A stretch of 32,000 nucleotides of DNA from Erysipelothrix inopinata (GCF_014396165.1 NZ_CP060715.1:720001-752000); one strand, 5' to 3'. Positions 12,619 through 30,884 are shown, counted from the stretch's first letter. Translations and numbers: made by a program. The notes: generated from the letters alone by a model not told the origin.

Positions 12619-12656
12619 AATTGTAATGCTCAGGTGCTTATCGAGGAGGAATAATT

Positions 12657-14243: not shown

Positions 14244-14246
14244 GCT

Positions 14247-14270: not shown

Positions 14271-14332
14271 CTATAAAATACGGATAAAAATTGTGATGAT
14301 ACCGTAAAAAATAAGGAAGCACGCGTTACCCC

Positions 14333-14360
14333 TTGAAATTACATTCAAAAAGACTATGAT
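14333..14360 (+). promoter_or_regulatory. Predicted promoter
   Basis: TTGAAA (14333-14338), a 16-nt spacer, then TATGAT (14355-14360), upstream of SD AGGAGG. Confidence 0.4.
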
Positions 14361-14380
14361 AGGAATAGGAGGACTTTGAA

Positions 14381-15151: not shown

Positions 15152-15172
15152 TAAGACTGTTTGGAGGCTATT

Positions 15173-15850
15173 ATGAACTATACAACTGTACTATTAGATT
15201 TGGATAATACGATTTTAGATTTTAAAGCAGCAGAAAAAGTTGCTCTTAAAAATACTATAGAGCATTTAGGGATTCCCTATACACAAGAACTAGTAAACCA
15301 TTATGAGTCGGTTAACCATGACTTATGGAGCCAGTACGAACGTGGTGAAATACCTAAGGATCAAATATTAGAAACACGTTTTGCTGAAGCATTTAAATCA
15401 TTTAATCTTCCATACTCAGGAATTGAAATGGATCGTTATTTCCGAAATGAGATTGAGGAAAATAATGTATTCATGGAATATGCTGAACAGTTTATGGAAG
15501 AATTATCAAAGCAATCCAAAATTATATTTGTAACGAATGGTGTGACAGAAACACAGCATCGTCGTATCAAACTAGCTAATCTTATGTCATATGCTGATGG
15601 TGAGGTCGTTTCATCAGAAACAGGATATGCAAAACCTATGAAAGAAATGTTTGACTATGTATTCAAAAAGTTTGAAATTACGGACTTGGAGAATGTCATA
15701 ATGGTTGGAGACTCACTAAAAGCAGATATCCAAGGTGGTATCAATGCCGGTATTGCGACATGTTGGTACAATCCAAAACATGAAATCAATGATACTGGAA
15801 TCATTCCAACTCATGAAATTGCAGATTTAAGAGAATATTTTAAAAAGTAG
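15173..15850 (+). CDS. YjjG-like HAD hydrolase (noncanonical pyrimidine nucleotidase family)
   Basis: VLLDLDNTILDF is HAD motif I, followed by VTNG and GDSLKADIQGGINAG. I prefer the ATG at 15173, after SD GGAGG. Confidence 0.75.
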   Translation: MNYTTVLLDLDNTILDFKAAEKVALKNTIEHLGIPYTQELVNHYESVNHDLWSQYERGEIPKDQILETRFAEAFKSFNLPYSGIEMDRYFRNEIEENNVFMEYAEQFMEELSKQSKIIFVTNGVTETQHRRIKLANLMSYADGEVVSSETGYAKPMKEMFDYVFKKFEITDLENVIMVGDSLKADIQGGINAGIATCWYNPKHEINDTGIIPTHEIADLREYFKK

Positions 15851-15873
15851 AATGCGCTTGCATTCTACTTTTT
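15847..15873 (+). terminator. Rho-independent terminator
   Basis: Stem GTAGAATGC / GCATTCTAC with a GCTT loop and a T5 run. It overlaps the stop codon. Confidence 0.8.
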
Positions 15874-15909
15874 AAATTCGTATAGTTAAAGTAAGGAGAG
15901 GTGATAAGA

Positions 15910-16215
15910 ATGTTGAAGACAAAAGTATTTAGAGATTATATGCCAGCTACAGACTATAAATTGGTAACTGCCTTGAGTCAAATGGAGGAATTCATTAACC
16001 AACCTAATGTTGTATACAAAGGGCATGATTTTACTCCAGAGAAAGTTAGTGGCTTTAACTTTGGAATTTGGTTCTTTATTTTTATCGGCCGTGCAAATCT
16101 TAAAACAGACACGCGGGGAATGATCACCCTTGTATACGAAGAATTAGAAGGGGATCTAAGTGAAACAATTATTGATGTGGAAGAACCAACATCAGTAGAA
16201 GAACAAGTATTATAA
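15910..16215 (+). CDS. Small hypothetical protein (101 aa)
   Basis: ORF with SD AAGGAGAGG upstream. The ATG at 15910 and the GTG at 15901 are both possible starts. I recognise no motif. Confidence 0.5.
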   Translation: MLKTKVFRDYMPATDYKLVTALSQMEEFINQPNVVYKGHDFTPEKVSGFNFGIWFFIFIGRANLKTDTRGMITLVYEELEGDLSETIIDVEEPTSVEEQVL

Positions 16216-16226
16216 AGTATAATCAG

Positions 16227-16256
16227 AAAACAAGTCGATAAATTCGACTTGTTTTT
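16227..16256. terminator. Bidirectional terminator between convergent genes
   Basis: Perfect 12-bp stem AAAACAAGTCGA / TCGACTTGTTTT with a TAAAT loop. A/T runs on both sides. Confidence 0.8.
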
Positions 16257-16260
16257 ATTA

Positions 16261-16944
16261 CTAATTGAGAGATTTTTGATATTGAAGTCCCATTACAACT
16301 ACCCAGACATAGGCAAGAGTTTTAGGAATCATTAAGAGACCTATTGCCTGATTTACATCCGACCATAACACCACAGGGATATAGAAACCAAAAGATAGAG
16401 TAATCGCCAGCCACATCCATTTGAAAGGATCATTCGCTCTCTTTCGAGACTCGTTATAGAATAGATAAATCATAATTATACCCATTATAGCAAAGGGGAT
16501 ATTGCGATAAATAGCCCAGTCTAGTGGTTGATTGTGAACAAGCCACATGTTTTGTGGGAAAAGACCAACGATAATTCGAACTGCAGCTAACACTAACAGA
16601 ACGATTGATATAGTCTTAGTATTTTTGACTTGATAGTATTCTTTCCAAATAATATATAGGATGAGATAGAATACGGTCATTGTAATCGAAGTAACAGCCT
16701 TACCAAAGCCCATAGAAACTTCATACTGTATAAATGCACTTGTTAAATCACCGTTTGGACCTGCAGATAATAGTGCAATCACACGTGGAATTAAATGGAA
16801 TGCGTCACCCGCACCAAGGATGACTGCCATCCATCCGTAAAGTTTTGTAACTTTATTTTTTGAATTTTTTAACAAATAAATACCCATACCAACGACACCT
16901 AATAAATAGATGATATCAAAAATTGATTCCATAATAACTCTCAT
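16261..16944 (-). CDS. Polytopic membrane protein of unknown function
   Basis: 227-aa ORF with about 7 hydrophobic helices. SD GGAGGTGA lies 5 nt before the ATG. It is divergent from a TetR gene. Confidence 0.65.
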   Translation of the reverse strand: MRVIMESIFDIIYLLGVVGMGIYLLKNSKNKVTKLYGWMAVILGAGDAFHLIPRVIALLSAGPNGDLTSAFIQYEVSMGFGKAVTSITMTVFYLILYIIWKEYYQVKNTKTISIVLLVLAAVRIIVGLFPQNMWLVHNQPLDWAIYRNIPFAIMGIIMIYLFYNESRKRANDPFKWMWLAITLSFGFYIPVVLWSDVNQAIGLLMIPKTLAYVWVVVMGLQYQKSLN

Positions 16945-16955
16945 AATTCACCTCC

Positions 16956-17010
16956 ATGAACAGTGTTCATATTGTATTACTAATATAGTTCAACAAAAGA
17001 AGAATGTCAA
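16956..17010 (-). promoter_or_regulatory. Promoter plus candidate TetR operator for the membrane-protein gene
   Basis: On the minus strand: TTGACA (17005-17010), a 17-nt spacer, then TATATT (16982-16987). A perfect 15-bp palindrome, ATGAACAGTGTTCAT (16956-16970), lies between the -10 and the SD. Confidence 0.55.
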
Positions 17011-17066
17011 GAAGTTTAATGAAAATTCGTGTTTAGTGTATAATAGATACGAATAGAGGTGACGCT

Positions 17067-17624
17067 ATGAAAATAAAAAGTTCTGAAGTTAGAGATACAA
17101 TTCTTGAGAAATCAAAACAAATTTTAGAAACTGGAGAATTTAATTCTTTAACGATGCGATCTGTTGCCTCAGAGTGTGATATAGCGTTGGGTACAATCTA
17201 CCGCTATTTTAAAAATAAAGACGAAATCTTAGTTGAACTGAGTAAAGAGTACTGGCATGATGCTTTAGAATCTTTGAATGAGATTACTTATTCAGGAACA
17301 GATTTTGATACTAATCTGAAGATTTTTTATAGTCATCTCTTCCCATTATTTACTCGTTTTGAAAACGATTATATTTTGAGACTGCGTGATATGTCCGTTG
17401 AACTTAAAGATACAGGGAGATCCATGGAGAAAAGAATGTTTGATTTGTTTGTAGAAAGTATCTATGACATCTTAGTCAGAGATACGAGAATATCTTTACC
17501 TGATAATCTAGAGTTGCATGAACTTTCAAAACTGATCAGAAACTCTTTAATGTATTCGATACTACAAAAAAATGATAATATCGACCAAGACATTCATACT
17601 CTAAAGTCACTCATCATTCAATAG
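17067..17624 (+). CDS. TetR/AcrR family transcriptional regulator
   Basis: The N-terminal HTH is LTMRSVASECDIALGTIYRYFKNKDEIL. SD is AGAGGTGA. Confidence 0.85.
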   Translation: MKIKSSEVRDTILEKSKQILETGEFNSLTMRSVASECDIALGTIYRYFKNKDEILVELSKEYWHDALESLNEITYSGTDFDTNLKIFYSHLFPLFTRFENDYILRLRDMSVELKDTGRSMEKRMFDLFVESIYDILVRDTRISLPDNLELHELSKLIRNSLMYSILQKNDNIDQDIHTLKSLIIQ

Positions 17625-17640
17625 CACCCATATCTATAAA

Positions 17641-17672
17641 ATAAAGCCGAACTCCTTGGAATTCGGCTTTAT
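17641..17672. terminator. Bidirectional terminator between TetR and tpx
   Basis: 11-bp stem ATAAAGCCGAA / TTCGGCTTTAT, flanked by A/T runs. Confidence 0.7.
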
Positions 17673-17701
17673 TATTAAGGTAATAATAAAATATGTTTAA
17701 A

Positions 17702-18190
17702 TTAAGCGTTTTGCGCTGCTTCGAGAGCTGCTTCATAATTTGGCTCTTGGGCCATTTCAGGAACAATTTCTGAGTAGACAAGTTTTCCATCTTTATTGAT
17801 TACAAAGATAGAACGAGCGAGCAATTCAAACTCTGGAAGGTAGATGCCATAAGCGTGTGCAAATTCGAGTTCGACATCGCTTAGCATTTCTGCCTCAATT
17901 CCAGCTACTGCACACCAGTCTTTGAGTTGATCAATGGTATTATTAGATACGTTCACAATCTTTACACTTGGATAATCACTTGCTACCTTAAAAAAGTGAC
18001 GCGTTTGAAGATCACAAACACGAGTGTTGATATCAGGGAAAATACTGATAAGAACAGTCTGTCCTTTTAGGGAATCTAAAGAAACGGTTTCACCGTTGAT
18101 ATTAGGTAAATTAAATGATGGAGCCATTTCGTTTAAGGTTGGTTGAACACCTGCTACCTCAGTTGGAACTCCTTTTTTTGTTATTTGCAT
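17702..18190 (-). CDS. tpx: Thiol peroxidase (Tpx, atypical 2-Cys peroxiredoxin)
   Basis: MQITKKGVP...APSFNLPNINGETVSL...ISIFPDINTRVCDLQTRHF carries the peroxidatic Cys, and LKDWCAVAG the resolving Cys. The start at 18190 has SD AAGGAGGAT. The 42-aa upstream extension in the track has no SD and is rejected. Confidence 0.85.
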   Translation of the reverse strand: MQITKKGVPTEVAGVQPTLNEMAPSFNLPNINGETVSLDSLKGQTVLISIFPDINTRVCDLQTRHFFKVASDYPSVKIVNVSNNTIDQLKDWCAVAGIEAEMLSDVELEFAHAYGIYLPEFELLARSIFVINKDGKLVYSEIVPEMAQEPNYEAALEAAQNA

Positions 18191-18211
18191 TAAAATATCC
18201 TCCTTGGCCTC

Positions 18212-18270
18212 ATTATAAGTGATAAAGTAGTATATTCCAAAGGACATGCAACCTAATTTTTTGGTACAAT
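18212..18270. promoter_or_regulatory. Divergent promoter region (tpx leftward, HNH/methyltransferase rightward)
   Basis: On the minus strand: TTGGAA (18235-18240), 17 nt, then TATAAT (18212-18217). On the plus strand: an extended -10, TGgTACAAT (18262-18270). Confidence 0.45.
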
Positions 18271-18290
18271 AGAAATGAATTGAGGTAACT

Positions 18291-18824
18291 ATGACAAAGA
18301 GAATTCTAACAACCAAACAAGAAATTGCGGATTATTGGAAAGATGCGATTGATACCAATCAAACAAACGTTACCTACAAAAATGCTACTTCACATTGTTG
18401 GCGATGTGGTGTTAAAAAACGTTTGGATCGTTGTCATATTCGCGCTTTTTCTCTTGGAGGAAAAGACGAGCCAGGAAATTTTATTCTACTTTGCAAACAT
18501 TGTCATATTGATAATCCCAATGTTGAAGACATCAGTATTATCTGGGATTGGCTCCATGCTTATAAATTCGACGATGAGAAACCTTATTGGTATCATCAAG
18601 GTGTACGGGAATATGAATACATTTATAATGAGAGTATAGAGAGTCATTTATCTCGATATCATATTGAGATTAGAGAACAATTTGATAAACTTCTAGAAGA
18701 AACATTGAAAGATGTCGCGCACCACTTCGGACAACCAAGAAACAACCGAGCTACTGTTGCAGGAGCTATAAAAATAACATTAAATAAATTGGATGAAATT
18801 GAGGATAATTATGAACAAAAATGA
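18291..18824 (+). CDS. HNH endonuclease-domain protein with an unassigned ~100-aa C-terminal region
   Basis: CWRCG (C36, C39), DRCHI (H49), GNFILLC (N63) and CKHCH (C68-H72) form a zinc-finger HNH signature. SD is TGAGGTAA. Confidence 0.75.
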   Translation: MTKRILTTKQEIADYWKDAIDTNQTNVTYKNATSHCWRCGVKKRLDRCHIRAFSLGGKDEPGNFILLCKHCHIDNPNVEDISIIWDWLHAYKFDDEKPYWYHQGVREYEYIYNESIESHLSRYHIEIREQFDKLLEETLKDVAHHFGQPRNNRATVAGAIKITLNKLDEIEDNYEQK

Positions 18825-20187
18825 ACATTACCAAGTTGAGATAATCGACTTAACTTACGAAGGATTTGGAGTTGCGAAAGTGGACGGTTTTCCTGTTTTT
18901 ATTGAGAATACGATTCCAGGAGAAGTTGTGGATATCACTATTTTGAAAGTAACAAAGCGCTTTGCATTTGGTAAAGTACTTTCGTGGACTAAAGAATCAA
19001 AAGCACGTGTCGAAATCACAGATGCAGTGGGAACTCGAACAGGAACGATGCCACTTCAGCATCTATCCTATAGTGAACAACTTAAGTTCAAAAAAGATTT
19101 AGTCATTAAGACATTATCGAAGGAAGTAAGCTTAGAAAATGTGATCATCCATGATACGTTAGGAATGGAAAATCCATGGAACTATCGAAATAAAGCACAG
19201 ATTCCTGTTAGAGAAATTAATGGTCAATTGGAAACGGGGTTTTATAAAAAGGCCTCTCACGATCTAATTCCGATTGAAAACTATCACATTCAAGATTCTA
19301 AAATTGATGAAGCAATCATTATTGTTAGAGATATTCTTAGAAAACATAACATTAAGGCCTACGATGAAGAACATCACCGTGGTAACATTCGTCATATCAT
19401 AGTGAGACGTAGTGAAGCAACAAACGAAATAATGATTATCCTCGTTACAAAGGAGTCAAAAAAACTCTCAATAAATATTGTGGAAGAAATTACCAAGGAA
19501 ATACCCGAGTGCATAAGTATTGTCCAAAACATTAATGAGAAACGCACTAATGTCATTATGGGTCAACAACAAATTCTACTATACGGAGAAGATCGTTATC
19601 ATGATATTCTATTAGGAAAGACTTTCTCAATTTCTTCAAGATCCTTCTTCCAAGTAAATACGAAACAAACCGAGGTTTTATATAGTAAGGCCATAGAATT
19701 GGCAGATATCAAACCAAATGAAACAGTTGTAGATGCCTATTGTGGAATTGGTAGTATCTCACTCAACCTTGCGGACCATGCGAAACATGTATATGCAATG
19801 GAAATTGTAGAAGATGCAATTGTCATGGCTAAAGACAATGCCGAAACTAATAATATTACTAATGTAACATTTGAAGCAGGAAAGGCTGAAGAAATCATGC
19901 CAAGATGGGTCAAAGAAGGGTTAAGTATTGATACTCTAGTAGTAGATCCACCACGTAAAGGATTAGATATCAATTTTATCGATGCTTCCGTTAAATCGAA
20001 TCCAGAGCGAATTGTTTATGTTTCATGTAACCCGGCAACACTAGCCAGAGACTTGAAGTTATATCAAGAACGTGGATATGAACTTAAGGAAGTATGTCCT
20101 GTCGATATGTTTCCACAGACAGTACATGTTGAGTCGGTAGTCTTGTTGAGTAAAAATAATTTTAATGCTGTCAGTTTTAATTACTAA
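18811..20187 (+). CDS. TRAM-domain 23S rRNA (uracil-5-)-methyltransferase, RumA/RlmCD family (paralogue 1)
   Basis: An N-terminal TRAM domain (GFGVAKVDGFPVFIENTIPGEVV), then NYRNK, FFQVN, SAM motif I VDAYCGIGSISL, DPPRKG and the catalytic VSCNPATLARD. I prefer the ATG at 18811 (SD GAGG at 18801-18804); it overlaps the HNH ORF by 14 nt. Confidence 0.85.
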   Translation: MNKNEHYQVEIIDLTYEGFGVAKVDGFPVFIENTIPGEVVDITILKVTKRFAFGKVLSWTKESKARVEITDAVGTRTGTMPLQHLSYSEQLKFKKDLVIKTLSKEVSLENVIIHDTLGMENPWNYRNKAQIPVREINGQLETGFYKKASHDLIPIENYHIQDSKIDEAIIIVRDILRKHNIKAYDEEHHRGNIRHIIVRRSEATNEIMIILVTKESKKLSINIVEEITKEIPECISIVQNINEKRTNVIMGQQQILLYGEDRYHDILLGKTFSISSRSFFQVNTKQTEVLYSKAIELADIKPNETVVDAYCGIGSISLNLADHAKHVYAMEIVEDAIVMAKDNAETNNITNVTFEAGKAEEIMPRWVKEGLSIDTLVVDPPRKGLDINFIDASVKSNPERIVYVSCNPATLARDLKLYQERGYELKEVCPVDMFPQTVHVESVVLLSKNNFNAVSFNY

Positions 20188-20314
20188 ATCTAGTATGTAT
20201 ACTGAGGATATAAAAAGGTAATAATTGGGTATTCTAATAAAAAAACTAAAATTGTCTAATTAAATCAGTCAAAATGGTTGATTGAAAATATGGGAAAGGA
20301 AGTGATTTGTAAAA

Positions 20315-23300
20315 ATGTGTCCAATAATACCAGAATACAAAGAACTAAATTCTCAGCAAGAAAGTCAAATGTGGAATACAATTTCATCGGATAAATATGA
20401 TTGGGAGGATAATTACTTAGAAAAAAGATTGTTAGGTCTACTACCATCTGAGAGACATTTTTTTAATGACAGAAATCAACAACTATCAAAATCTCATCAA
20501 GAACAAAATCGTATTGTGGATGAGATAAATCAAAACATTGGAAGAATAAATCGAAATCTAAAGGAGAATTTCAATCAGTACGTTAGATCGGTAAGTAATC
20601 TATACTCAAAGTTGTATTCTTACAAAGACGTTAAAGAAGACTACTCAAACGAAGAAGTTATAAATGAAGCTTTAAAGTTTAATAAAGTATTTTTGATTAC
20701 AGGTGTAGGTGGAATTGGTAAAAGTGAGTATATGTTTGAACTATCCCAAAAAATAAACGAGTATGGATTTGAGGTATTAACGGTTTATGGAAAGTATATT
20801 GAGCAGATATCAAGTGCAGTATTTAACGAAATTATAAAAATTTCAGAAGAGAAGAGATTTTTTCTTTTAGTTGATGCAATTAATGAATTAAGTGATGAAA
20901 CAAGATTACAAGTTTTAGAGTTTATTGATAAAAACGAGGGAAATATGAATTTACGCATCATACTAACCTATAGAGATTATTCACTCCCTAAACACGAAAT
21001 TGATTCCATAAAGTCAAAGGTAACTGATTTAGAAATTTTTAGTGGTGTTTCGAGCGAAGATGCGATTGAAAAGATATCTGAAAAGTACAATCTTGATTTA
21101 ACTATGCACGAGCATTTTATTGTTAATAACAATCCATATCATTATTCACTAGCAATTAAAGTGCTGTCAAAAAATTTCTTAGTTAATCCAGACAGAAAAC
21201 CTCTCATTAAAGGTACTCATCTTTATGAGAAGATGATTCAAATATCTTTAGGTAAACCAAGGTGGTCTCAGACAAAAAAAGTAATTATGGAAATGATTTC
21301 AATAAACAGTAAAGTTCTAACATTCACTCAGCTAAAAGAGATTTTAGGTGGTGAATTTAGTAGATATATAATTGAGATGGGACAGAAAAATTTCATTGTG
21401 ACTTATAGTGATAAAGAAAATCAATACATTCTTTTTAAAAATGAATCTCTTTGCGACTATCTGATCGCAAGAAGTATTATGGGGAAAATTAAGGAACTCA
21501 CTTCAGATGAAAGCGTTAAACTACTCAAGCAGCTATTAATCAATTTCCACTCGGTAAGTAGAGCCTTGATAATTATGATATTTGAAAAATGTGAAAATGA
21601 AATTAATGATGCATTGTTCATTATTATGGAGACTGGTTTGATTGAATCGTTAACTTTAGACATGTTTAACGAATTAGAATTAAGCGCAGAAAACATGAGA
21701 ATAATTAAAGATAGGTTAACTCACAATATGACCGTGAAAGATTTAATCCGAGAAATTGGTGGATATCACTCAAATCCATTTAATTGTGTAAATCATATTA
21801 ATATGCAATTGTTTGAAGATGCAAATAGTGTATATAGTTTGGAATATCAAAGATATGAAGTTAGCTCGATTCGTTCGAGACTTAAAATATGGATTAGAAG
21901 CATTGTTAGGTATGAATATTCAAGTATATATATAGAAGAAAAGTTCTGGTTTGCATTTTGGATAAGCTCATTACCTAACGGAAATATTAGATACTTAGCA
22001 AGAAAATTAATATTTGAAGTGGCAAAATTAAACAGTGAATATTGCGATGTTCTAATTGATTCATATTTTAGAGTGGAAGATGATTATATTAAAGAAGGAA
22101 TAATTCATGTTCTCAGTTCTTTGGAAAAAGACAATAAAAAAATTGTTGAATTTTTTCAACAAATCAATAATGAAACCCTACTAAACATCAATTGCATTCA
22201 GTGGATTCAATTATATCTTTACGGATATAAGAGATTAACTAATGAAACTAAAATAGATATAAGTGAATTCAGAGATAAGCAAAATGATGATACAATATTC
22301 GATTTCCTATCAGTGGTTGGTTTTGATTTTAAGTACGATTACAGATTGCTAAATATGGACGTCTATAATATTGATAAATACAACATACATTTCAGAACAC
22401 AGTTCTTAAGTGAAGATAAAGTGAAGATTAATAAAATACACCAAGAAGTTCATAAAAAGATGAGATTGAATGATCTTGATTTTTTAAAAAGATATGTATC
22501 AAATAATAAAGTAAAGGAGTACTATTCAGAAAGTGGAATTACTGAACAATTGGTAGACTCTTACGATATATATTTGTCTTGGCAGTATTTGTTTAAGTAT
22601 TTTTTAAATAAATATCATATTGATCTACACGATATTGAGAAAAAAAGAGTTTTTGAGTCTGATATGAAAAATAATCTTTATAAAGCTTTAGATTTATCAA
22701 TTTCTAATTTAGAAGGTTCTTTGGCATGTAATTATTACTTAAATACGTTTGACAAATATAACGAAAGAGAATTGTGTTTTGATTCATATGAAAACGATGT
22801 ATATAATGAGTCAGTAGTTTTATACTATCCAATTAGTGTTTATAATGAAGAAATCGATAGTTTGGATAAAAAAATCATAAAAAAAATATATATACCTAAG
22901 ATAAAAACAGATGAGTGGGCAGAAGATTTCAAATTATCTATCGCTAACTTCAGAGAATTAATAGCTCCCGTTAAGTTTAAAGGTGAAGAATGGAGGCTGA
23001 TATATGGAAGTATTAAAAGAAGAGAAAAAGATAAAAAAAGCGGCAAATTAGTATGGAGTGATGAATATATACTAAACTTGGCGGTCGATGAAAAATATAC
23101 ACTTTCAAATAATCCTTCAAATGATAGAATGTATACCATAGAAACTCCGACGATTAATGATGATGTTATTAATATAAGTATATACGACACTTCAAGGACA
23201 TGTAGTCTCAGAAGTACCAATGAGTTTAGAAATGAGTTTGTCGAAACAAATTTCAATGTTCCTTCGACTAGATTAGTAAAAATATTTGATCTTAAGTACA

Positions 23301-23686
23301 GCTTACATAATAACTCGTGGAAGAATAATAGTGGTGAGGATGTGATTCTTGTTAATAATAATAAAAGTTATTGGTATAATGATGGAATAACTGGGTCTTT
23401 GTTTATGAAAGATAAATATTTTAAGGTTCTTGAAAAAAAATGCAAATTGAAATATTTTGGTTTCTGTGAGCGTTTTTATGGCGATAAAGGATATAATAAT
23501 GAATCAGCACTTCAAATTGAGTTATACTTGGATGGAACTGAAAATTACTATAAACATTATGAAAGGCCGAATAGAGATAAACCAAATCTTCCAAATAGTA
23601 AACAAAATAGACAGGAAGGCATCGATGATAACCAAATGGAAGAATATTATAAAAAATTAAATGATTTGGAGTATACAAATGAATAA
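20315..23686 (+). CDS. Large NACHT/STAND-like P-loop NTPase (1123 aa) with no recognisable effector domain
   Basis: Walker A is GVGGIGKS (aa 130-137, nt 20702-20725). Walker B is FFLLVDAINE (D187), followed by RIILTYRD (aa 214-221). YILFKNESLCDYLIARSI (aa 371-388) is a winged-helix-like patch. SD is GGAAAGGAAGTGA. Confidence 0.7.
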   Translation: MCPIIPEYKELNSQQESQMWNTISSDKYDWEDNYLEKRLLGLLPSERHFFNDRNQQLSKSHQEQNRIVDEINQNIGRINRNLKENFNQYVRSVSNLYSKLYSYKDVKEDYSNEEVINEALKFNKVFLITGVGGIGKSEYMFELSQKINEYGFEVLTVYGKYIEQISSAVFNEIIKISEEKRFFLLVDAINELSDETRLQVLEFIDKNEGNMNLRIILTYRDYSLPKHEIDSIKSKVTDLEIFSGVSSEDAIEKISEKYNLDLTMHEHFIVNNNPYHYSLAIKVLSKNFLVNPDRKPLIKGTHLYEKMIQISLGKPRWSQTKKVIMEMISINSKVLTFTQLKEILGGEFSRYIIEMGQKNFIVTYSDKENQYILFKNESLCDYLIARSIMGKIKELTSDESVKLLKQLLINFHSVSRALIIMIFEKCENEINDALFIIMETGLIESLTLDMFNELELSAENMRIIKDRLTHNMTVKDLIREIGGYHSNPFNCVNHINMQLFEDANSVYSLEYQRYEVSSIRSRLKIWIRSIVRYEYSSIYIEEKFWFAFWISSLPNGNIRYLARKLIFEVAKLNSEYCDVLIDSYFRVEDDYIKEGIIHVLSSLEKDNKKIVEFFQQINNETLLNINCIQWIQLYLYGYKRLTNETKIDISEFRDKQNDDTIFDFLSVVGFDFKYDYRLLNMDVYNIDKYNIHFRTQFLSEDKVKINKIHQEVHKKMRLNDLDFLKRYVSNNKVKEYYSESGITEQLVDSYDIYLSWQYLFKYFLNKYHIDLHDIEKKRVFESDMKNNLYKALDLSISNLEGSLACNYYLNTFDKYNERELCFDSYENDVYNESVVLYYPISVYNEEIDSLDKKIIKKIYIPKIKTDEWAEDFKLSIANFRELIAPVKFKGEEWRLIYGSIKRREKDKKSGKLVWSDEYILNLAVDEKYTLSNNPSNDRMYTIETPTINDDVINISIYDTSRTCSLRSTNEFRNEFVETNFNVPSTRLVKIFDLKYSLHNNSWKNNSGEDVILVNNNKSYWYNDGITGSLFMKDKYFKVLEKKCKLKYFGFCERFYGDKGYNNESALQIELYLDGTENYYKHYERPNRDKPNLPNSKQNRQEGIDDNQMEEYYKKLNDLEYTNE

Positions 23687-23861
23687 GCTAAATGATCGAA
23701 TTTAACTTGAATAATAAATTGAAAGCAAACAAAAAAGAAATTGCAGAGAAACGCCCTTATCTTTTTTGTGCATTCAATTCATGTGGAGACACTCGCATTA
23801 CTTGCATCTATATTTTTATAGAAATAAACCAAAGTAGTAAATCTCAAGAGAGGTTATTATA

Positions 23862-24437
23862 ATGATCATATACGTGACTAAAAAAACAGTTGATAGATTT
23901 AACATGGAAATAATGGAAACCTTAAGTGATAATTCAAAAGATGAAGCACAAAGAATAGTAAGTGCGGAAAGTTGCAATAAAATGCACGAATGGGGCACAA
24001 AGATATTCTATTTTGAAAAACGAAAGTGTATTCAACTCGTACATTTTGCAACGAAATTCACTCTTATATTAGTAGATATAAAGGTCTCCGATTTGGAACA
24101 CTTGAGAGAGCTAATTCTTCATTATTTACTAACTTTATATACAAATGATGAGAAAATGCAGCTATGTATTTATCGAATGCTTTCTGAATGTCCTGAATTA
24201 GTCTATGCAAAGTTAACAGACAAACGAATCATTTCAACACTAAACCGGACACAACTCGATTTCTTATTGGATGGTTATAGATTGTATGACTACATTGAAA
24301 ATGGTATTCTCGTAACTATGAAACTAAATGAAGATATGAATTTTAAGTGGTTGGTGACAGAAACTATTGAAAAGAAAACAGACTACTTTTTTGCAGGAGA
24401 AAAGTTCAAGGGGGTAATGATGGCTAATTATGGATGA
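23862..24437 (+). CDS. Hypothetical protein (191 aa), possibly the DUF6933-like family
   Basis: ORF with SD AGAGAGG. The pattern MIIYVTKK...W..K.FYF.KRKC.QLVH..T.F..IL....SDL..L.ELI resembles a conserved Firmicute family as I recall it. This is unverified. Confidence 0.5.
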   Translation: MIIYVTKKTVDRFNMEIMETLSDNSKDEAQRIVSAESCNKMHEWGTKIFYFEKRKCIQLVHFATKFTLILVDIKVSDLEHLRELILHYLLTLYTNDEKMQLCIYRMLSECPELVYAKLTDKRIISTLNRTQLDFLLDGYRLYDYIENGILVTMKLNEDMNFKWLVTETIEKKTDYFFAGEKFKGVMMANYG

Positions 24438-25074
24438 GTACACTGATTTAAACATTGATAAAAAACCAAAAGAGACCTTGTTGAGTGAAATAAACAGTTA
24501 TAAAAAAGAAATAGAAAATAATAAAATTTTATTAGAGAAACCAAATAAATATAGTGAAGATGAGTTCTGAAAAAGAATTATTGAGATAGAAATGTTAGCT
24601 GAGAAAATGCAAGATGCAATCGTTTCGTTTAAAAAAGCAGGCGGAATCTATGAACAATCAAAACTAGAACGAAAATCCTCAGAATTTGACAGAAATCTAA
24701 AGTATATTTATAAATTGATATTTTCAATCGGTGGATTCTTATCAGGATATAAAAATTATATAATTATAGTAGGCAAAGAAGAAGATTCGGATATTGAAGA
24801 AGGTGACTCTGAGAATAGAATACCTTTTGAAAACTCAATAGAAATAAAATCTTACAGAGACAAAGCATTTCTTGATGAATTAAAAGAAATAAAAATTGGT
24901 GAGTGGAGAAACAGTTACACTACCGAAAGATTTGGTTATACGATATACGATGGAACACAGTGGGAACTTGAAATATATTATTGCAATGCAAAGGGCCCAA
25001 TTAGATTTTCAGGGAGTAACTCCTATCCCTATAATTTTAATAAATTTTTAGAATTGTTAAAAGAAGTAGAATAG
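24430..25074 (+). pseudogene. Unknown-function gene interrupted by a single in-frame TGA (46-aa N-terminal piece plus the 160-aa track ORF)
   Basis: The ATG at 24430 overlaps the upstream stop (ATGGATGA) and reads 46 codons to the TGA at 24568-24570. The track ORF 24592-25074 is in the same frame. Only 7 sense codons separate the stop from the next ATG. Confidence 0.5.
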
Positions 25075-25135
25075 TATAAATATCGGAAGAAATTAAAGTA
25101 TAATTAAAAACGATTAAACAATTTGAGGTGATGTT

Positions 25136-26539
25136 ATGAATAGAAACACATGCCCAACAGAAGTGTTGGAAGTCACAATCGATACGATTGAAGAAAATGG
25201 TTATGGGTATGCAAAATATACTCATGCACCTACAACAGGTTCACAAGGAAAAAGATTGAACCTCTTTATAAAAAATGTTGTACCTGGAGATGTCGTAAAA
25301 GTGACAGTTCCCAATGCACAAGGACGAAGAAAAGCTACTTTATCCTACGACGAACTTTTAAAACCAGGGCCAACTCGTAATCTGGATATTTCCACAGATG
25401 AATCTGTATCCGGTGGTGCACCTTTGCAGTATATGAAATATGAGAATCAACTTGAATTTAAAGAAAACATGGTTAAACATCATCTTGAAAATAATGGATT
25501 TGATACAAGTGTGGTTAAACCAATCATCGGCATGGAAAATCCATATCGTTATCGAAATAAGATGGAGCTAACATTTGGACCCAATGGTGAATTAGGAATG
25601 ACACAACAAGGGAATTTCCGTAAGGTTATTGATTTGCAGGATTCATTACTGATGCCAGAAATTATGGTTGATGTGAAAAATGTTGTCAGTGAATGGCAGG
25701 AAAAGTACAAACTTTCGGGATATAATAAAGAAACAGAAGAAGGATTATTAAGAAATCTTATGATGCGTATGTCCTTTACAACGGATGAATTGATGTTGGT
25801 GTTTTATGCTACACAGTCTCCCGCAGCATACGAAGAAGAAGTAAGAGATCTTGTTGATTTACTGACAACGAAATTTGATAACCTCGTTAGTTTACAATGG
25901 ATTGAACATGCTGAAGCTGTAGAACGTATTCAAGCTGACGCAATTCACATCCTCCATGGAAGAGATTATCTCGTTGATGTTCTTAATGGCTTTAAGTACC
26001 GCATTTGGCCCGATACGTTTTTTCAAGCTAATCCAGTTCAAGCTGAGAAGTTGGTTGAATTAGCATTGGAAATGGCAGAAGTTAATGATCAAATGAAAAT
26101 GTTAGACCTCTTCTGTGGGGTTGGGACATTTAGTTTGCCTTTTGCTAAGAACAGTAAAGCTCTAGCAGGGATTGAAATTGTGGATAAATCAATTGAATCT
26201 GCAAGACGAAATGCTAAGGACAATGGACTGGAAAATACCTATTTTATGACAAGTGATGCGAGAAGTGGCCTTCCTAAATTGAAAGAAGAGTGGGGTCATC
26301 CTGATATACTATTACTCGATCCACCTCGTAGTGGTGCAGGGGGAAAAGTAATGAGAAGCATTGGACGTTTCGCAACTGACAAGATTATTTATGTTTCCTG
26401 TGCACCAAGAAGTTTAGCTGAAGATCTTGTATGGCTAAAGGAGTTTGGGTATAACATTGTGACTGTTCAACCAGTGGATCAGTTTCCACATACTGCACAT
26501 GTAGAAACTGTAGTTCTGTTATCAAAGAATAATATGTAA
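25136..26539 (+). CDS. TRAM-domain RNA (uracil-5-)-methyltransferase, RumA/RlmCD family (paralogue 2)
   Basis: A TRAM-like N-terminus, then RYRNK, FFQAN, motif I LDLFCGVGTFSL, DPPRSG and the catalytic VSCAPRSLAED. SD is GAGGTGA. Confidence 0.85.
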   Translation: MNRNTCPTEVLEVTIDTIEENGYGYAKYTHAPTTGSQGKRLNLFIKNVVPGDVVKVTVPNAQGRRKATLSYDELLKPGPTRNLDISTDESVSGGAPLQYMKYENQLEFKENMVKHHLENNGFDTSVVKPIIGMENPYRYRNKMELTFGPNGELGMTQQGNFRKVIDLQDSLLMPEIMVDVKNVVSEWQEKYKLSGYNKETEEGLLRNLMMRMSFTTDELMLVFYATQSPAAYEEEVRDLVDLLTTKFDNLVSLQWIEHAEAVERIQADAIHILHGRDYLVDVLNGFKYRIWPDTFFQANPVQAEKLVELALEMAEVNDQMKMLDLFCGVGTFSLPFAKNSKALAGIEIVDKSIESARRNAKDNGLENTYFMTSDARSGLPKLKEEWGHPDILLLDPPRSGAGGKVMRSIGRFATDKIIYVSCAPRSLAEDLVWLKEFGYNIVTVQPVDQFPHTAHVETVVLLSKNNM

Positions 26540-26561
26540 ACATAAATTTAAGGATAAGTTT

Positions 26562-26711
26562 ATGAGCGTCCTAACAATAGCGAGTCAAAATTCTAAAGAA
26601 AGAGGTTACGATTACTATGTACGTGACCAAGTCCGCGAAGTTTTAAAATCAAATGAAACTGAAGCATATGCAGTTGTAAATGGTAGCGGCATGAATCTTT
26701 TTGACTTGTGA
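26562..26711 (+). pseudogene. Truncated N-terminal fragment (49 codons) of a SWIM-zinc-finger/SNF2-associated type protein
   Basis: MSVLTIASQNSKERGYDYYVRDQVREVLKSNETEAYAVVNGSG matches the N-terminal (E/Q)RGYDYY..G.V......Y.A.V.GS pattern that I recall from SWIM-domain proteins. It stops after 49 codons and no SWIM CxC...CxH follows. Confidence 0.4.
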
Positions 26712-26815
26712 ATATATATGAATGTGAATGAGTATTTTTAGATACGAAAGTTGTAATAATTATGAATCTTGTATCGACATCAATATAATAATATAAATGA
26801 TATGGGAGAGTAGAA

Positions 26816-27325
26816 ATGATCACATTGAAGAGTGTTAATGCAAATAATATTAATGACATAATTGAACTTGAAGTTAATGAAAATCAAGAGAAATTTCTTG
26901 AAACATCTGTTTTAAAAAGTATCGGAGATGCACTGGAGATGAATATGGATGGAACTCCAGCAGTCCCACTTGCAATATATAAAGATACAAAAATAATAGG
27001 GTTTATAATGTATATTTATGATGTTTTAGATCACGAAGATTTTCAAGGAAAAGAGTTCTACAACCAAAACACATATTTTATCTGGCATTTCGTAATTGAT
27101 AAAAGATTCCAAGGATTAGGTTATGGTAGGGATACTCTAGTCGAGTTTGATAAACTAATTAAAACCTATCCTAACGGTCCGTCTGATAATATAGTTCTTT
27201 TCTTCCATTCTGATAACGAGATAGCAAGAAATCTTTACAGATTACTGGGGTATAAAGAAACATCAATTACAATGGACAATTCAACGATGTTAATAAAAAA
27301 ATTGAATGAAACATTCACAGAGTGA
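26816..27325 (+). CDS. GNAT family N-acetyltransferase (diamine/spermidine acetyltransferase-like)
   Basis: RFQGLGYGR is the acetyl-CoA motif and NEIARNLYRLLGY is also present. SD is GGGAGAG. Confidence 0.75.
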   Translation: MITLKSVNANNINDIIELEVNENQEKFLETSVLKSIGDALEMNMDGTPAVPLAIYKDTKIIGFIMYIYDVLDHEDFQGKEFYNQNTYFIWHFVIDKRFQGLGYGRDTLVEFDKLIKTYPNGPSDNIVLFFHSDNEIARNLYRLLGYKETSITMDNSTMLIKKLNETFTE

Positions 27326-27610
27326 TTTATATATTGTGTATTGTGCGGTTTATGGAGATTGTTTTTATTCCAATCGATAATTCGGTAATAACGTACTGAT
27401 TTTTTAAAATAGTGAAGTTGCTGAAAATATGATTGATTAATAATTTTAGTCAATTATACAAGTCCCAATCCGATTTAGTTTAATTAGCATCTAACAATCC
27501 AGGTTAATTAGTAATAGGTCGTCTAAATAATTTATTGATACTGCTCATGTTGAAACAGTGGTATTACTCGAAAAGCAGTAACGGGTTTCTGATTTAAGTG
27601 CAAATGTATT

Positions 27611-29132
27611 GTTAGTGTCAAATAAGTGGGGGAAAATAATGGTTTCTTTAATTTCTGCTGATATGTGCCTTAAGCCATCTTGAACTCGAGGATTTATCGT
27701 AAGCATTTCGTTGTTCGAACATCGAGAAGTCATATTTGGCTTCTTTTTGTTTTATACTTTTAGGATCTATTGAATCTAAATATAAGTTTCTAATATCGAT
27801 ATGGTTAAGGAATAAGTTTCTTAGATTAAGATAAGCATTTAAATTTTCTTTGCAGTATCCCTTAGGTCTATTTGAGTATATAGAAGCGAGATTATGACTG
27901 ATAGCTGACTCCATACTACAACCTATTTTCAAGCCGTTGTAGCTGTACTGTATCGCAAGAGTATTGCGTAGTATATAATTACATTTTTCTTCTATTGTTT
28001 TTTGACGATTTGATTGTTCTGTACCATCTATCAAGGTTTGAATGATTTGATTAAAGGTTTCAGTATTTCCGTTAATTATATTGGAGGCGAGGATTTCTTT
28101 TGTAGGTTTATCTGTGGTGATATGATTAAGTGCTTGTTTAAAGTGAAACTTATCAAGGGCAAAGCTACTATGAGAAAATTCACGAGTTCCTGACTTAATC
28201 CATAAAGCACCATCTCCGAGTATGGTAATATTCTTGATTTTATCCATATCATACGTGATTGATAAGAGGTCATATACACTATTCCAGAAATTACTTTCAG
28301 TTCCTGAATAAACCATTTTATTAATCAATTGACGGCGCTTCTGAGGTCCTTTTATACCTTCAAAAATTACAGCTGACTTGACCATGACAGACTGAGATTC
28401 ATTACGTTGCATATGAACATACTTTTCATCGGCCATGATGTATAAGTGACTTGGTGTAGGCTTAGGCTCACAAAGTTCAGACAGTGACGGCAAGGGACGT
28501 TTAACGGTATTATAAACTGTTTGTCTTGATATACGATAATGTTCACGATGCTGAGACGTTGAGAAAGAAGAAAAGATTCTGTCACCAATCTGCTCTCCGA
28601 CTTTAATCATTGAATTTTGATTCGCAAAAGTCTCCACAATCATGCACTTTACGCATGGGTCATAGCGATCATATTTAGGTAAACCTAGTTTGCGATCGAC
28701 ATAGATAAAGGTTTTTCCTGTAGTCTTATCTTTGTAGATAGTTCGTTTAAACTTCACGACTCCAAATACAGTAATAAGGGTGCGTTCACGTGTTTGGTGA
28801 ACATAGTAATCTCTTTTACGAAGTGCGGAATTCTTAAATTTTAAATCAAGAAGTTCAAAGTTTTGAACAAGATAGTCACAAGCAGCAATGCGAAGCCATT
28901 CTGAAGTATGTTCAATAAACTGAGAGTAATTACGGATCGTAAATTCTTGATTGGTAGGTTCTAAAAGGTAATTCGTTGATTCCTGGATAGACACAAATAA
29001 ATTTTTTAAGGTGTTGGATAATTCAAATTGTGGTAAAATAGTCATGGCGATAGCTCACTTTCTAATAGTTTGTAGTAAAACCATTATAAGCGAGTTATCG
29101 CTTTTTGTATTCCCCCACCTATTTTACACAAT
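27611..29132 (-). mobile_element. ISLre2-family (UPF0236) insertion sequence, apparently intact
   Basis: A single 465-aa transposase ORF. The imperfect terminal inverted repeats are GTGTCAAATAAGTGGGGGAA (27615-27634) and TTCCCCCACCTATTTTACAC (29110-29129), matching 18/20. The flanking direct repeat CAAATGTATT sits at 27601-27610 and 29133-29142. Confidence 0.75.
27648..29045 (-). CDS. ISLre2/UPF0236 family transposase
   Basis: ERTLITVFGVVKFKRTIYKD...YVDRKLGL, LYIMADEKYV, ILGDGALWIK and LDKFHFKQAL match my recollection of ISLre2-type transposases. Confidence 0.75.
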   Translation of the reverse strand: MTILPQFELSNTLKNLFVSIQESTNYLLEPTNQEFTIRNYSQFIEHTSEWLRIAACDYLVQNFELLDLKFKNSALRKRDYYVHQTRERTLITVFGVVKFKRTIYKDKTTGKTFIYVDRKLGLPKYDRYDPCVKCMIVETFANQNSMIKVGEQIGDRIFSSFSTSQHREHYRISRQTVYNTVKRPLPSLSELCEPKPTPSHLYIMADEKYVHMQRNESQSVMVKSAVIFEGIKGPQKRRQLINKMVYSGTESNFWNSVYDLLSITYDMDKIKNITILGDGALWIKSGTREFSHSSFALDKFHFKQALNHITTDKPTKEILASNIINGNTETFNQIIQTLIDGTEQSNRQKTIEEKCNYILRNTLAIQYSYNGLKIGCSMESAISHNLASIYSNRPKGYCKENLNAYLNLRNLFLNHIDIRNLYLDSIDPKSIKQKEAKYDFSMFEQRNAYDKSSSSRWLKAHISRN

Positions 29133-29244
29133 CAAATGTATTATGTTAGTTTACTTATTAGGTGAAAACCGATAAAATAGTACTATCAATACATTCATTT
29201 ACATATTTAGTTATATAAAAGAAGAGTGGAGACACTCTTTTATT

Positions 29245-30660
29245 ATGGATATGATGTTAGAAACGGTAGAAAATATGAAATTTGAAGATTTAAAAATTAA
29301 TGAGGAGCTACTAAGAGCCTTGAAGGAACAAGGTTATGAAGCCCCTACACCAATCCAAGAAGGAGCAATTCCTGCTGTTCTTGATGGTAGAGATGTCTTA
29401 GGATTAGCACAAACGGGTACGGGGAAAACTGCTGCCTTTGCAGTCCCAACGCTACAGATATTGGCACAAAATCCAAACCAAGCAAAGAAACGTAAAATTC
29501 GTGCATTGGTCCTAACACCTACGCGTGAACTTGGAACACAAATATACGAAAGTTATCGTGACTATGGGAAGCATTTACCGCTGACAACGACAGTTATCTT
29601 CGGTGGTGTTAACCAAGGGAAACAAGTTACCGCACTTCGTGCTGGTGTGGATGTATTAGTTGCTACACCGGGACGCTTGATTGATTTAATGAATCAAGGT
29701 CATGTAGATATATCTAAGATTGAAATATTCATTTTAGATGAAGCCGATCGTATGTTAGATATGGGATTCATTCATGATATTAAAAGAATCATGAAAATCG
29801 TTCCTCGTAAAAAACAAACATTGTTATTCTCTGCAACGATGCCAAAGGAAATTGAAGAGATCGTAAGCGAACTTCTTTACAATCCTGTGAAAGTATCCGT
29901 AACTCCGGTATCATCAACAGTTGATACCGTCAAGCAGACAGTACAATTTGTAGATCAAAAAAATAAAATAAACTTGCTCTCAAGATTCTTGAAGGAGAAT
30001 CCTGGGTCATCAGTATTAGTGTTTACACGAACAAAACGTGGTGCTGACCGTGTCGTGAAAGATTTACAACGACGTCAAATATCAGCACTTGCCATTCATG
30101 GAAATAAATCGCAGAATGCACGCCAACGCGCCTTGAGTAGTTTTGAGGATTATGAAATTCAAGTACTTGTCGCAACAGATATCGCATCGCGTGGAATTGA
30201 CATTAATGAATTGGGTTATGTTGTGAACTATGACATGCCAGATGTTCCTGAAACTTATGTTCACCGAATCGGTCGTACCGGTAGAGCAGGGCATGAAGGA
30301 CACTCCATTTCATATGTTAACTATCAAGAAATTGAATTGTTGGAAGATATCGAGAAGTTAATTGGTAAAAACATAGAGGTTATCGACAATCCAGACTTCC
30401 CTCTAGTAGATAAAACGGAAAAAGTAAATAAGAGTAAAGCAAATCGCCACAAGAAGAAACAAGAATCAATTCAAACGAAATCGGACAGAAACGATTCAAA
30501 GACAAAAGACAATCGCCATAGAAAAAATAGACAAAAGAGTGAACCATGGCGTAAGTCAGAAGGAAAGAAATCAAATAATAAAAAATCTGGGGATAAAAAA
30601 CCAGGCAATCGTACACAAAAAGCAAAACGAGAAGCGAATAAGAGAAAACGCAAGGGGTAG
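29245..30660 (+). CDS. DEAD-box ATP-dependent RNA helicase with a K/R-rich C-terminal tail
   Basis: Q motif PTPIQ, motif I AQTGTGKT, PTRELGTQ, DEAD (ILDEADRM), SAT and HRIGRTGRAG. The start is ambiguous; the ATG at 29275 (MKFEDLKINEELL) is equally plausible. Confidence 0.9.
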   Translation: MDMMLETVENMKFEDLKINEELLRALKEQGYEAPTPIQEGAIPAVLDGRDVLGLAQTGTGKTAAFAVPTLQILAQNPNQAKKRKIRALVLTPTRELGTQIYESYRDYGKHLPLTTTVIFGGVNQGKQVTALRAGVDVLVATPGRLIDLMNQGHVDISKIEIFILDEADRMLDMGFIHDIKRIMKIVPRKKQTLLFSATMPKEIEEIVSELLYNPVKVSVTPVSSTVDTVKQTVQFVDQKNKINLLSRFLKENPGSSVLVFTRTKRGADRVVKDLQRRQISALAIHGNKSQNARQRALSSFEDYEIQVLVATDIASRGIDINELGYVVNYDMPDVPETYVHRIGRTGRAGHEGHSISYVNYQEIELLEDIEKLIGKNIEVIDNPDFPLVDKTEKVNKSKANRHKKKQESIQTKSDRNDSKTKDNRHRKNRQKSEPWRKSEGKKSNNKKSGDKKPGNRTQKAKREANKRKRKG

Positions 30661-30663
30661 GTC

Positions 30664-30867
30664 ATGGATCCAAAACAACGAAAAAATATTAAACCAGGAC
30701 TTCATGTTCTTGTAGTACAGAAACAAGATCAACGTACCGGTGTTACTACTGAAGGTTATGTTGATAGACTGCTTACAAATTCACAGTATCATCCCCATGG
30801 AATTAAGGTAATGTTACAAAGTGGAATCGTAGGACGTGTTTGTGAAATCTTAGATGATCACAATTAG
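30664..30867 (+). CDS. ywbE: YwbE-family small protein (DUF2196)
   Basis: LTNSQYHPHGIKVMLQSGIVGRV is the YwbE signature as I recall it. It starts 3 nt after the helicase stop. Confidence 0.7.
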   Translation: MDPKQRKNIKPGLHVLVVQKQDQRTGVTTEGYVDRLLTNSQYHPHGIKVMLQSGIVGRVCEILDDHN

Positions 30868-30884
30868 GGAAGAGAGAAATAAAT

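Follow-up and report, generated by a model that had tools for sequence, protein, structure and literature searches.

Integrase-less insertions in two rum genes of Erysipelothrix inopinata, probably remnants of rum-targeting elements, one of which carries an Avs-like STAND gene

We analysed a window of 32 kb from Erysipelothrix inopinata (NZ_CP060715.1:720001–752000; positions are counted from its first base), with a focus on the block 20188–25135, which lies between two rum methyltransferase genes, hereafter paralogue 1 and paralogue 2 (Table 1). Both encoded proteins exceed the TIGR00479 cut-off of 183.55 bits, and a TRAM domain is recognised by Pfam in paralogue 1 only. The block contains a gene for a 1123-amino-acid (aa) STAND NTPase, H9L01_03595, followed by three smaller open reading frames (ORFs). 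Downstream of paralogue 2 follow a 49-aa ORF, a gene for a GNAT acetyltransferase, and an insertion sequence (IS). An initial annotation of this DNA had described the block as a single AT-rich accessory island of old or non-autonomous origin; its coordinates for both paralogues, the 1123-aa ORF, and the small ORFs are correct, and so is its view that integrase and tRNA genes are missing, as both were searched for and neither was found. No tRNA gene is present across all 32 kb, and neither a tRNA nor an Rfam element was detected at the block borders.

To place the block in its genomic context, relatives were sought with paralogue 1, taking one genome per species. The closest one was an Erysipelothrix metagenome-assembled genome (MAG), L001 (paralogue 1, 91% protein identity; about 87% nucleotide identity), which is collinear with the window in three segments (Table 1). 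The window stretch 20134–25134 is represented in L001 by 567 bp with an unrelated 153-aa ORF, and 26515–29139 by about 490 bp. Because a relative of about 87% identity lacks it, the block is accessory. In Erysipelothrix sp. HDW6A, the upstream AhpC/HNH/rum order is kept, and rum is followed by a helix-turn-helix gene, a type I restriction–modification (R-M) system whose hsdR is broken, and an AAA_13 gene. Three Erysipelothrix genomes therefore show three different contents at the site of paralogue 1; the gene order of the block is not conserved in L001 or HDW6A, where other DNA takes its place. The 153-aa ORF of L001 was considered as a GIY-YIG nuclease, which was rejected, as Pfam, NCBIfam, and PHROG scans returned no family match. 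In L001, paralogue 2 and the DEAD-box helicase gene are separated by a small, apparently frameshifted gene (13337–13710) that is not present in the window.

The homology to L001 does not extend to the stop codons of the two paralogues. It stops at position 20133 in paralogue 1 and at 26514 in paralogue 2, in both cases at the conserved C-terminal His-Val-Glu codons. Paralogue 1 is a hybrid gene whose last 18 codons (20134–20187, SVVLLSKNNFNAVSFNY and stop) are supplied by inserted DNA, designated element A, and paralogue 2 is likewise a hybrid, with its last codons from 26515 onwards (…LLSKNNM and stop) supplied by element B. The left border, which the initial annotation had set at the stop codon of paralogue 1, thus lies inside this gene, at 20134. 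A six-frame scan for HVE[ST]xxL returned four copies, all on the plus strand, compared to 0.007 expected from Markov shuffles. Two of them are the current ends of the paralogues; the other two are orphan rum 3' ends at 23780 and 27546, so that the former statement that no att-like repeat is present was wrong. Orphan 1 is identical to L001 11331–11343 over 13 of 13 nt (TTCATGTGGAGAC; E = 0.035), and has a T[LI]ALL continuation in common with the end of the L001 paralogue 1 (…HVETIALLNKENKLNL and stop). Orphan 2 is identical at 34 of 37 nt (92%; E = 2e-9) to the genuine 3' end that paralogue 2 (RlmCD2) has in L001, where the gene ends in HVETVVLLEKRNS and stop. The two ends of each element are related as well: CATGTTGAG at 20125–20133 matches CATGTGGAG at 23780–23788 at eight of nine bases, and the repeat of element B (26490–26514 and 27538–27562) matches at 21 of 25 bases.

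Both paralogues now contain the peptide VVLLSKNN, which had been proposed to mark a junction. It is written in different codons in the two genes (e.g., Ser as AGT vs. TCA), and the paralogues are only 30% identical (BLASTP); VVLLSKNN therefore stems from the inserted DNA and not from the paralogues, and the proposed mark is a real one, located where the homology to L001 breaks off in both genes. Since the homology stops at the His-Val-Glu codons and the original ends are found orphaned downstream, each paralogue received an insertion: both were hit separately at CAYGTNGAR, gained a replacement end ([ST]VVLLSKNN…), and had the old end displaced downstream.

Table 1. Features of the window and segments collinear with the Erysipelothrix MAG L001
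Feature	Position	Strand	Evidence or remark
Collinear segment 1	8779–20133		L001 1–11341
Collinear segment 2	25135–26514		L001 11909–13288
Collinear segment 3	29140–31997		L001 13775–16632
rum paralogue 1 (RlmD/RumA-type 23S rRNA m5U methyltransferase)	18793–20187	+	TIGR00479 rumA, 463 bits; Pfam TRAM and tRNA_U5-meth_tr
Current end of paralogue 1	20125	+	HVESVVLLSKNNFNAVSFNY and stop
attL-like core of element A (His-Val-Glu codons)	20125–20133	+	CATGTTGAG
Element A, integrase-less insertion, 28.1% G+C	20134–23777	+	Absent from L001; bounded by rum 3' end and orphan
1123-aa STAND NTPase, H9L01_03595	20315–23686	+	Pfam nSTAND3, 25.7 bits
Orphan 1, original 3' end of paralogue 1, attR side of element A	23780–23821	+	HVETLALLASIFL and stop; motif scan
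191-aa DUF6933 protein	23862–24437	+	Pfam DUF6933, E = 3.6e-17; PADLOC candidate PDC-S63, E = 1e-11
46-aa ORF, overlaps DUF6933 stop codon	24430–24570	+	Called as gene on a Logan contig; weak PHROG and Pfam matches only
160-aa ORF, phage-associated family	24592–25074	+	phrog_24571, E = 2e-20
rum paralogue 2	25136–26539	+	TIGR00479, 283 bits
attL-like repeat of element B	26490–26514	+	ATACTGCACATGTAGAAACTGTAGT
Current end of paralogue 2	26498	+	HVETVVLLSKNNM and stop
Element B, integrase-less insertion, 29.2% G+C	26515–27537	+	Absent from L001
49-aa ORF in element B	26562–26711		Possible fragment of SWIM-protein N-terminus
169-aa GNAT acetyltransferase in element B	26816–27325		Pfam GNAT hit
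attR side of element B, repeat and orphan end	27538–27581	+	Matches L001 RlmCD2 3' end
Orphan 2, original 3' end of paralogue 2	27546–27581	+	TAHVETVVLLEKQ and stop; motif scan
Intact ISLre2-family IS	27602–29141	-	NCBIfam ISLre2, 197 bits; Pfam UPF0236
IS inverted repeats, 31 nt	27609–27639 and 29105–29135		
ISLre2 transposase	27648–29045	-	

The former single island is thereby a composite of a 3.6-kb att-bounded element and a separate 1.3-kb segment, both accessory. Element A holds the STAND gene as its sole gene, with 91 bp of non-coding DNA between the stop codon and orphan 1, and in element B 212 bp separate the GNAT gene from the attR repeat. Beyond their rum-like ends, elements A and B have no similarity above background. 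Pfam, NCBIfam, and PHROG scans revealed no recombinase, relaxase, or type IV secretion system protein in any ORF of 20134–27537 and no phage or conjugation/transfer module in the window, in which Pfam also detected no Resolvase or Recombinase domain. For the 49-aa ORF, earlier called a truncated SWIM-type fragment, support for that label is weak and consists of an alignment (40% identity, E = 0.1) with the N-terminal part of a SWIM zinc-finger protein of 157 aa; phage records gave matches at E = 0.1 only, a large protein search returned only the ORF itself and one 40-aa match, and neither plasmids nor Pfam yielded a hit. For the GNAT protein, kinship with the first gene (an acetyltransferase) of the Streptococcus element phi-m46.1 or with GNATs beside a STAND homologue was rejected, as generic GNAT similarity was all that was seen.

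Regarding base composition, the G+C content of the block is 28.5%, compared to 34.6% in the remainder of the non-rRNA part of the window (8361 onwards), to which the scan was limited and of which the block is the minimum-G+C stretch of 4.9 kb. The drop that had been proposed from five hand-counted values, all of them exact (0.31, 0.31, 0.27, 0.37, and 0.45), is thus real for G+C, but not for codon usage. Synonymous codon usage of three block genes was not separable from that of core genes (z = +0.65, -0.81, and -0.04), and G+C at third codon positions is 0.244 in the STAND gene (core range 0.22–0.32). The deficit is confined to codon positions 1 and 2, where it is due to block proteins rich in F, Y, I, N, and K (FYINK) and poor in G, A, R, and P (GARP), and to the spacers (21–29% G+C). 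Codon-usage deviation was rejected as a sign of foreign origin, since the profile is flat, and composition alone could therefore not prove the case.

The position of the junctions is informative with respect to known mobile elements. It is known that rumA is a common target of the single large serine integrases of streptococcal integrative elements, both conjugative (ICEs) and mobilizable (IMEs), in which the att site is situated within the integrase gene and 3' parts are swapped reciprocally (PMC4701971, PMC5357655). In E. rhusiopathiae, phiEr670-like prophages flank rlmD and encode a serine recombinase (PMC12785378). The integration of ICEs at rum 3' ends, which the initial annotation had mentioned, is accordingly documented, and we could identify the same junction in two records. 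The Erysipelothrix phage phi1605 starts with rumA, ending in HVET… (…HVETVVRLTRKK and stop); at its far end, a gene encodes a 582-aa Resolvase/Recombinase/Zn_ribbon protein, and the 3' end of this gene holds the orphan HVEAIVLLIK and stop in another frame. In phi-m46.1, rum ends with …HVECVALLVKA and stop, and two tandem orphan ends precede pnp. The crossover position CAYGTNGAR is identical in the window, phi1605, and phi-m46.1. In the phi-m46.1 record (FM864213.1), the orphans are located at 3404 and 3520 of the analysed locus (L136), 116 bp apart, at the right end (~56.9–57.0 kb).

Elements A and B have several features in common with phi1605, phiEr670, phi-m46.1, and the rumA ICEs/IMEs (Ser_4 integrases), i.e., the target gene family and the His-Val-Glu crossover, a replaced rum C-terminus with the orphan original end at the far side, and defence genes near the ends (in phi1605, type III R-M at both ends and a SNF2-like helicase near the left end). 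However, the window lacks a recombinase gene reading into the orphan end as well as a phage or conjugation module, its elements measure 3.6 kb and 1.0 kb instead of 50–90 kb, and they have no sequence similarity to the fetched stretches of these records. The replacement ends in the window moreover stay in the rum frame and imitate the C-terminus of the rum protein; for the streptococcal cases, by contrast, a frame change is reported (PMC4701971). A second class for comparison is formed by cis-mobilizable elements (CIMEs), decayed derivatives of ICEs or IMEs that kept attL and attR and lost their integration and transfer genes, and for which mobilisation in cis is documented (PMC6323972, PMC7563491). 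Like these, the two window elements lie between attL/attR-like repeats at a target known for site-specific integration and comprise cargo only, with no recombinase, relaxase, or transfer gene. They differ in that no parental ICE or IME and no tandem partner element could be identified, that the repeats are degenerate, and that they occupy rum, whereas described CIMEs are mostly found at tyrosine-integrase sites (e.g., fda in S. thermophilus). As the att sites are kept and recombinase, phage, and transfer genes are missing, elements A and B appear to fit the CIME definition as CIME-like remnants. The missing recombinase, the imperfect repeats, and the fully host-like codon usage also agree with the old or non-autonomous acquisition suggested at the outset.

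The only gene of element A was analysed by structure prediction and homology searches. The AlphaFold2 model (predicted local distance difference test, pLDDT, 82.7; predicted template modelling score, pTM, 0.82) comprises a helical N-terminus (residues 1–115), an NTPase (~120–400), helical repeats (~400–840), and a beta-rich C-terminal domain (~845–1085). The tail (~1085–1123; window 23560–23686) is predicted to be disordered, and the absence of a CxxC motif from it is not explained by a frameshift. The Walker A (GVGGIGKS) and Walker B (LLVDAINE) motifs are invariant in 32 homologues. In total, 51 homologues were found among 5.8 billion proteins, nearly all of 1080–1160 aa, and the C-terminal domain occurs in this architecture only among 1.84 billion representatives. 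Sequenced phages and plasmids yielded no homologue, and a single distant homologue was seen on an IMG/VR contig, where a VapE-like gene and a C5 methylase are its neighbours. Other homologues are accompanied by a serine recombinase with DNA methylases, a MmeI R-M system with Fic and a second nSTAND3 protein, KAP and OLD-like ATPases, a PLD-helicase with hsdM, HicAB pairs, or Schlafen. Among 22 independent upstream contexts, three (those of the window, L101/L115, and L121) have the gene directly 3' of rum; the other rum-adjacent homologues are only 26–28% identical to the window protein. The downstream genes of L115, phage-like replication genes among them, include those for a Schlafen/AlbA_2 protein, a DnaB-like helicase, an ssDNA-binding protein of the Enc34 type, and the reverse transcriptase of a group II intron. 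This suggests a larger mobile element whose rum-proximal end is occupied by the STAND gene, and it lends indirect support to a possible derivation of element A from an ICE or IME. A promoter and terminator scan was uninformative.

Foldseek comparison of the whole protein returned Avs4, Apaf-1, MalT, a STAND-TPR protein, and Cdc6/ORC. When the C-terminal domain was modelled alone (pLDDT 81), the only match in the PDB was Avs3 (8dgc; E = 3e-6, probability 1.0). Avs1-3 are described as binding the terminase ATPase via a "C-terminal sensor" that is rich in beta strands and follows the TPR region (PMC13601566), a placement that agrees with the domain seen here. The window protein resembles the Avs proteins, especially these terminase sensors, in its STAND NTPase core, helical repeats, and beta-strand-rich C-terminal domain, and in being a single-gene system of a type found in defence islands. 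It differs from them in length (1123 aa vs. 1500–2000 aa), in having about 115 helical residues instead of a recognisable N-terminal enzymatic effector, and in matching no PADLOC Avs model, with a C-terminal domain that is confined to its own family by sequence. On the basis of its intact Walker motifs, full length, gene neighbours, recurrence beside rum, and predicted fold, the protein is probably an Avs-like anti-phage sensor. Whether the C-terminal domain could be a Cap4/PD-(D/E)xK nuclease, as carried by Avs3, was considered and judged unlikely, as no nuclease fold was among its Foldseek matches and neither a Pfam hit nor a canonical D…ExK was found.

Taken together, we assign a probability of roughly 70% to the reading that element A, the main part of the block, and element B are CIME-like remnants of decayed rum-targeting site-specific elements, the former of which preserves an Avs-like defence gene. 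The inserted DNA would originate from elements like phi1605 and phiEr670 of Erysipelothrix or phi-m46.1 and the rumA ICEs/IMEs of Streptococcus, all of which use a large serine recombinase whose gene lies at the attR end. Internal deletions would then have stripped the recombinase and nearly everything else, leaving one intact gene in element A and a gene fragment together with the GNAT gene in element B. In the STAND protein, the helical-repeat and beta-rich C-terminal region would bind a phage protein, perhaps the large terminase, since this region resembles Avs3. ATP-dependent oligomerisation via the NTPase would gather the small helical N-terminal domains and could thereby cause toxicity or abortive infection.

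Several observations weigh against this interpretation. Only two genomes, a near relative and a distant congener, underlie the close-range synteny. In element A, the repeat has just 9 bp with one mismatch, and the DNA match of orphan 1 is weak (13 nt, E = 0.035). Element A is one clean gene with zero gene debris, which is less expected under random deletion, and no recombinase relic is left beside either orphan. Comparison of element A, element B, and the separate third segment with the fetched parts (ends) of phi1605 and phi-m46.1 by tblastx revealed nothing; the parent family is thus deduced from the site and not from sequence. As for the defence function, the nSTAND3 score of 25.7 bits is under the Pfam cut-off of 27.2, and no effector domain was recognised by Pfam in residues 1–122 and 841–1123, scanned separately, or in the whole protein. 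PADLOC-DB, with its Avs models included, returned zero families at E ≤ 0.1, and the Foldseek result does not give the Avs3 residues that were aligned to the C-terminal domain. Finally, the CxxC motif of the C-terminal tail, which is present in nearly all homologues, is missing in the E. inopinata protein.

The orphan rum 3' ends that mark both window elements also appeared among 80 rum loci. Eisenbergiella tayi carries a complete hsdM-hsdS-hsdR between rum and an orphan end (HVETVCLLSKKT and stop), a Bacillus MAG (L005) an HD-domain gene and Phd/ParE before the orphan end, and Fundicoccus ignavus a 179-aa ORF in the same position. In Bacillus ectoiniformans (11200–13716 of the locus), ~130 bp of rum 3' sequence are duplicated near-perfectly on the two sides of a 2.3-kb insert, whose ORFs were judged from sequence to be SAM-methyltransferase-like and LysR-like; this duplication looks homology-driven rather than site-specific. 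A recombinase was found in none of these four cases. Several clostridial rum proteins (L012, L015, L024, L069, L101, and L115) have a long conserved extension after HVETVVLLS, e.g., …TQKTKRRINIVIDTDSLDLTR, which could be a native domain or sequence of an integrated element. Several "phage" records among the matches to rum and SWIM queries are assemblies without annotation and seemingly contain bacterial chromosomal DNA, like OR844988.1 ("Staphylococcus phage SA 1306 Kay", 386 kb, UNVERIFIED_ORG) with an ABC transporter ATPase gene; matches to such records are therefore no evidence of phage carriage.

In a rival view, the elements are living cassettes and not wreckage, i.e., integrase-less units with mimics of the rum 3' end that are moved in trans or in cis by the recombinases of visiting phages or ICEs, with rum genes serving as an exchange site for defence and toxin–antitoxin genes. 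The clean flanks and single complete gene of element A would be expected of such units, as would the whole modules in similar islets (hsdMSR in E. tayi, Phd/ParE in the Bacillus MAG), the arrival of VVLLSKNN with both window elements in different codons, and the recurrence of the STAND family beside rum. The tandem orphans of phi-m46.1 suggest serial insertions at the streptococcal site and thus accretion, and the documented cis-mobilisation of CIMEs would provide a route of transfer. On the other hand, a cassette identical or nearly identical to these was not found at any other rum site, the rum-adjacent STAND homologues are only 26–28% identical, and the VVLLSKNN-coding pattern used to search for a parent element gave zero matches in viral and metagenome collections. 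In addition, the repeats are degenerate, serine-integrase recombination between attL and attR requires a directionality factor, and selection for useful cargo during decay accounts equally well for intact modules. We regard living cassettes, the main rival to decay, as unlikely.

A non-defence role of the STAND gene, either as a regulator or housekeeping NTPase in MalT/AfsR-like signal transduction or as a decaying, non-functional gene, seems improbable to us. MalT and Cdc6/ORC are indeed among the Foldseek matches, PADLOC and NCBIfam are blank, no effector domain and no promoter stand out, and the conserved CxxC tail is missing; however, the protein has no DNA-binding output domain, its ORF is full length with invariant catalytic residues, and its tiny, patchy family is typical of mobile defence genes and consistently sits among R-M, toxin–antitoxin, and other defence genes. 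It is very unlikely that the arrangement is ancestral with loss of the STAND gene in relatives, or that the block was gained by homologous recombination via flanking rum sequence, for although the host-like codon usage, the single close relative available, and the B. ectoiniformans duplication with its resemblance to homology-driven (Campbell-type) insertion speak for it, a displaced second 3' end would not arise from simple loss or from allelic replacement, the repeats of 9–25 bp are imperfect and too short, the break point is the junction of known serine-recombinase elements, and three Erysipelothrix genomes have three contents at this site.

The remainder of the block, segment 23822–25135 (29.4% G+C), lies outside the att-bounded element A and is likewise absent from L001. 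No borders of this segment were found, and it is best read as a different, older variable layer of the same hot spot. Its 191-aa protein matches both the DUF6933 and the PDC-S63 models, the latter a PADLOC phage-defence candidate; PDC-S63/DUF6933 is a candidate family only, and the window member lies outside the att-bounded element. The 160-aa ORF has no match in Pfam, NCBIfam, or PADLOC. That the 46-aa and 160-aa ORFs form one frameshifted gene was rejected, as the PHROG family has ~126 aa and is fully covered by the 160-aa ORF.

Regarding other features of the window, the IS reported earlier downstream of paralogue 2 is indeed present; it belongs to the ISLre2 family, has 31-nt inverted repeats, and is flanked on both sides by the 8-bp direct repeat AAATGTAT. 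Just upstream of the transposase start, 29044–29106 matches the S. pyogenes antisense RNA Spy392987 in Rfam (48.4 bits; cut-off 47). Given this position, the Rfam family may represent the end of an ISLre2-type IS and not a free-standing small RNA. Upstream of the block, the start of paralogue 1 is overlapped by an HNH endonuclease gene (172–177 aa) in the window (18291–18824), L001 (9499–10032), and L092 (8486–9004), so that the HNH–rum pair is common to the three Erysipelothrix genomes seen; its HNH region has a weak, sub-threshold match to an IscB model. With the close MAG set aside, homologues of paralogue 1 are 63–64% identical in other Erysipelothrix species and 55–58% in Carnobacteriaceae/Aerococcaceae (Jeotgalibaca and Alkalibacterium), and this narrow gap hints at an unusual history of paralogue 1. 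Two pieces of rRNA operons are present, a 23S end with 5S at 1–377 and a complete 16S-23S-5S set at 3430–8360; the 5S copies score identically.

A far-reaching generalisation would be that the rum His-Val-Glu codons are a dedicated exchange site for integrase-less cassettes across Bacillota and that the STAND family represents, in Gram-positive bacteria, a minimal terminase sensor of the Avs1-3 kind whose N-terminal effector is new and non-enzymatic. We consider this combined proposal unlikely. If true, visiting phages and ICEs would use their serine recombinases to take up, stack, and spread cassettes with rum 3' mimics, with the STAND family, type I R-M systems, and toxin–antitoxin pairs as known cargoes, and an integron-like function would be built on the 3' end of a housekeeping gene. 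The findings themselves do not overturn current understanding. They give an island that is annotated solely as hypothetical proteins exact limits and a probable origin, and they place the rum att site of streptococcal ICEs and of Erysipelothrix and Streptococcus prophages at the same three codons in both paralogues of one genome. Orphan rum 3' ends provide a simple signature for decayed, integrase-less islets, which exposed defence and toxin–antitoxin islets in Eisenbergiella, Bacillus, and Fundicoccus. The small, uncharacterised STAND family, linked to rum in three of 22 contexts and with an Avs3-like C-terminal domain, is a candidate phage sensor of Gram-positive bacteria.

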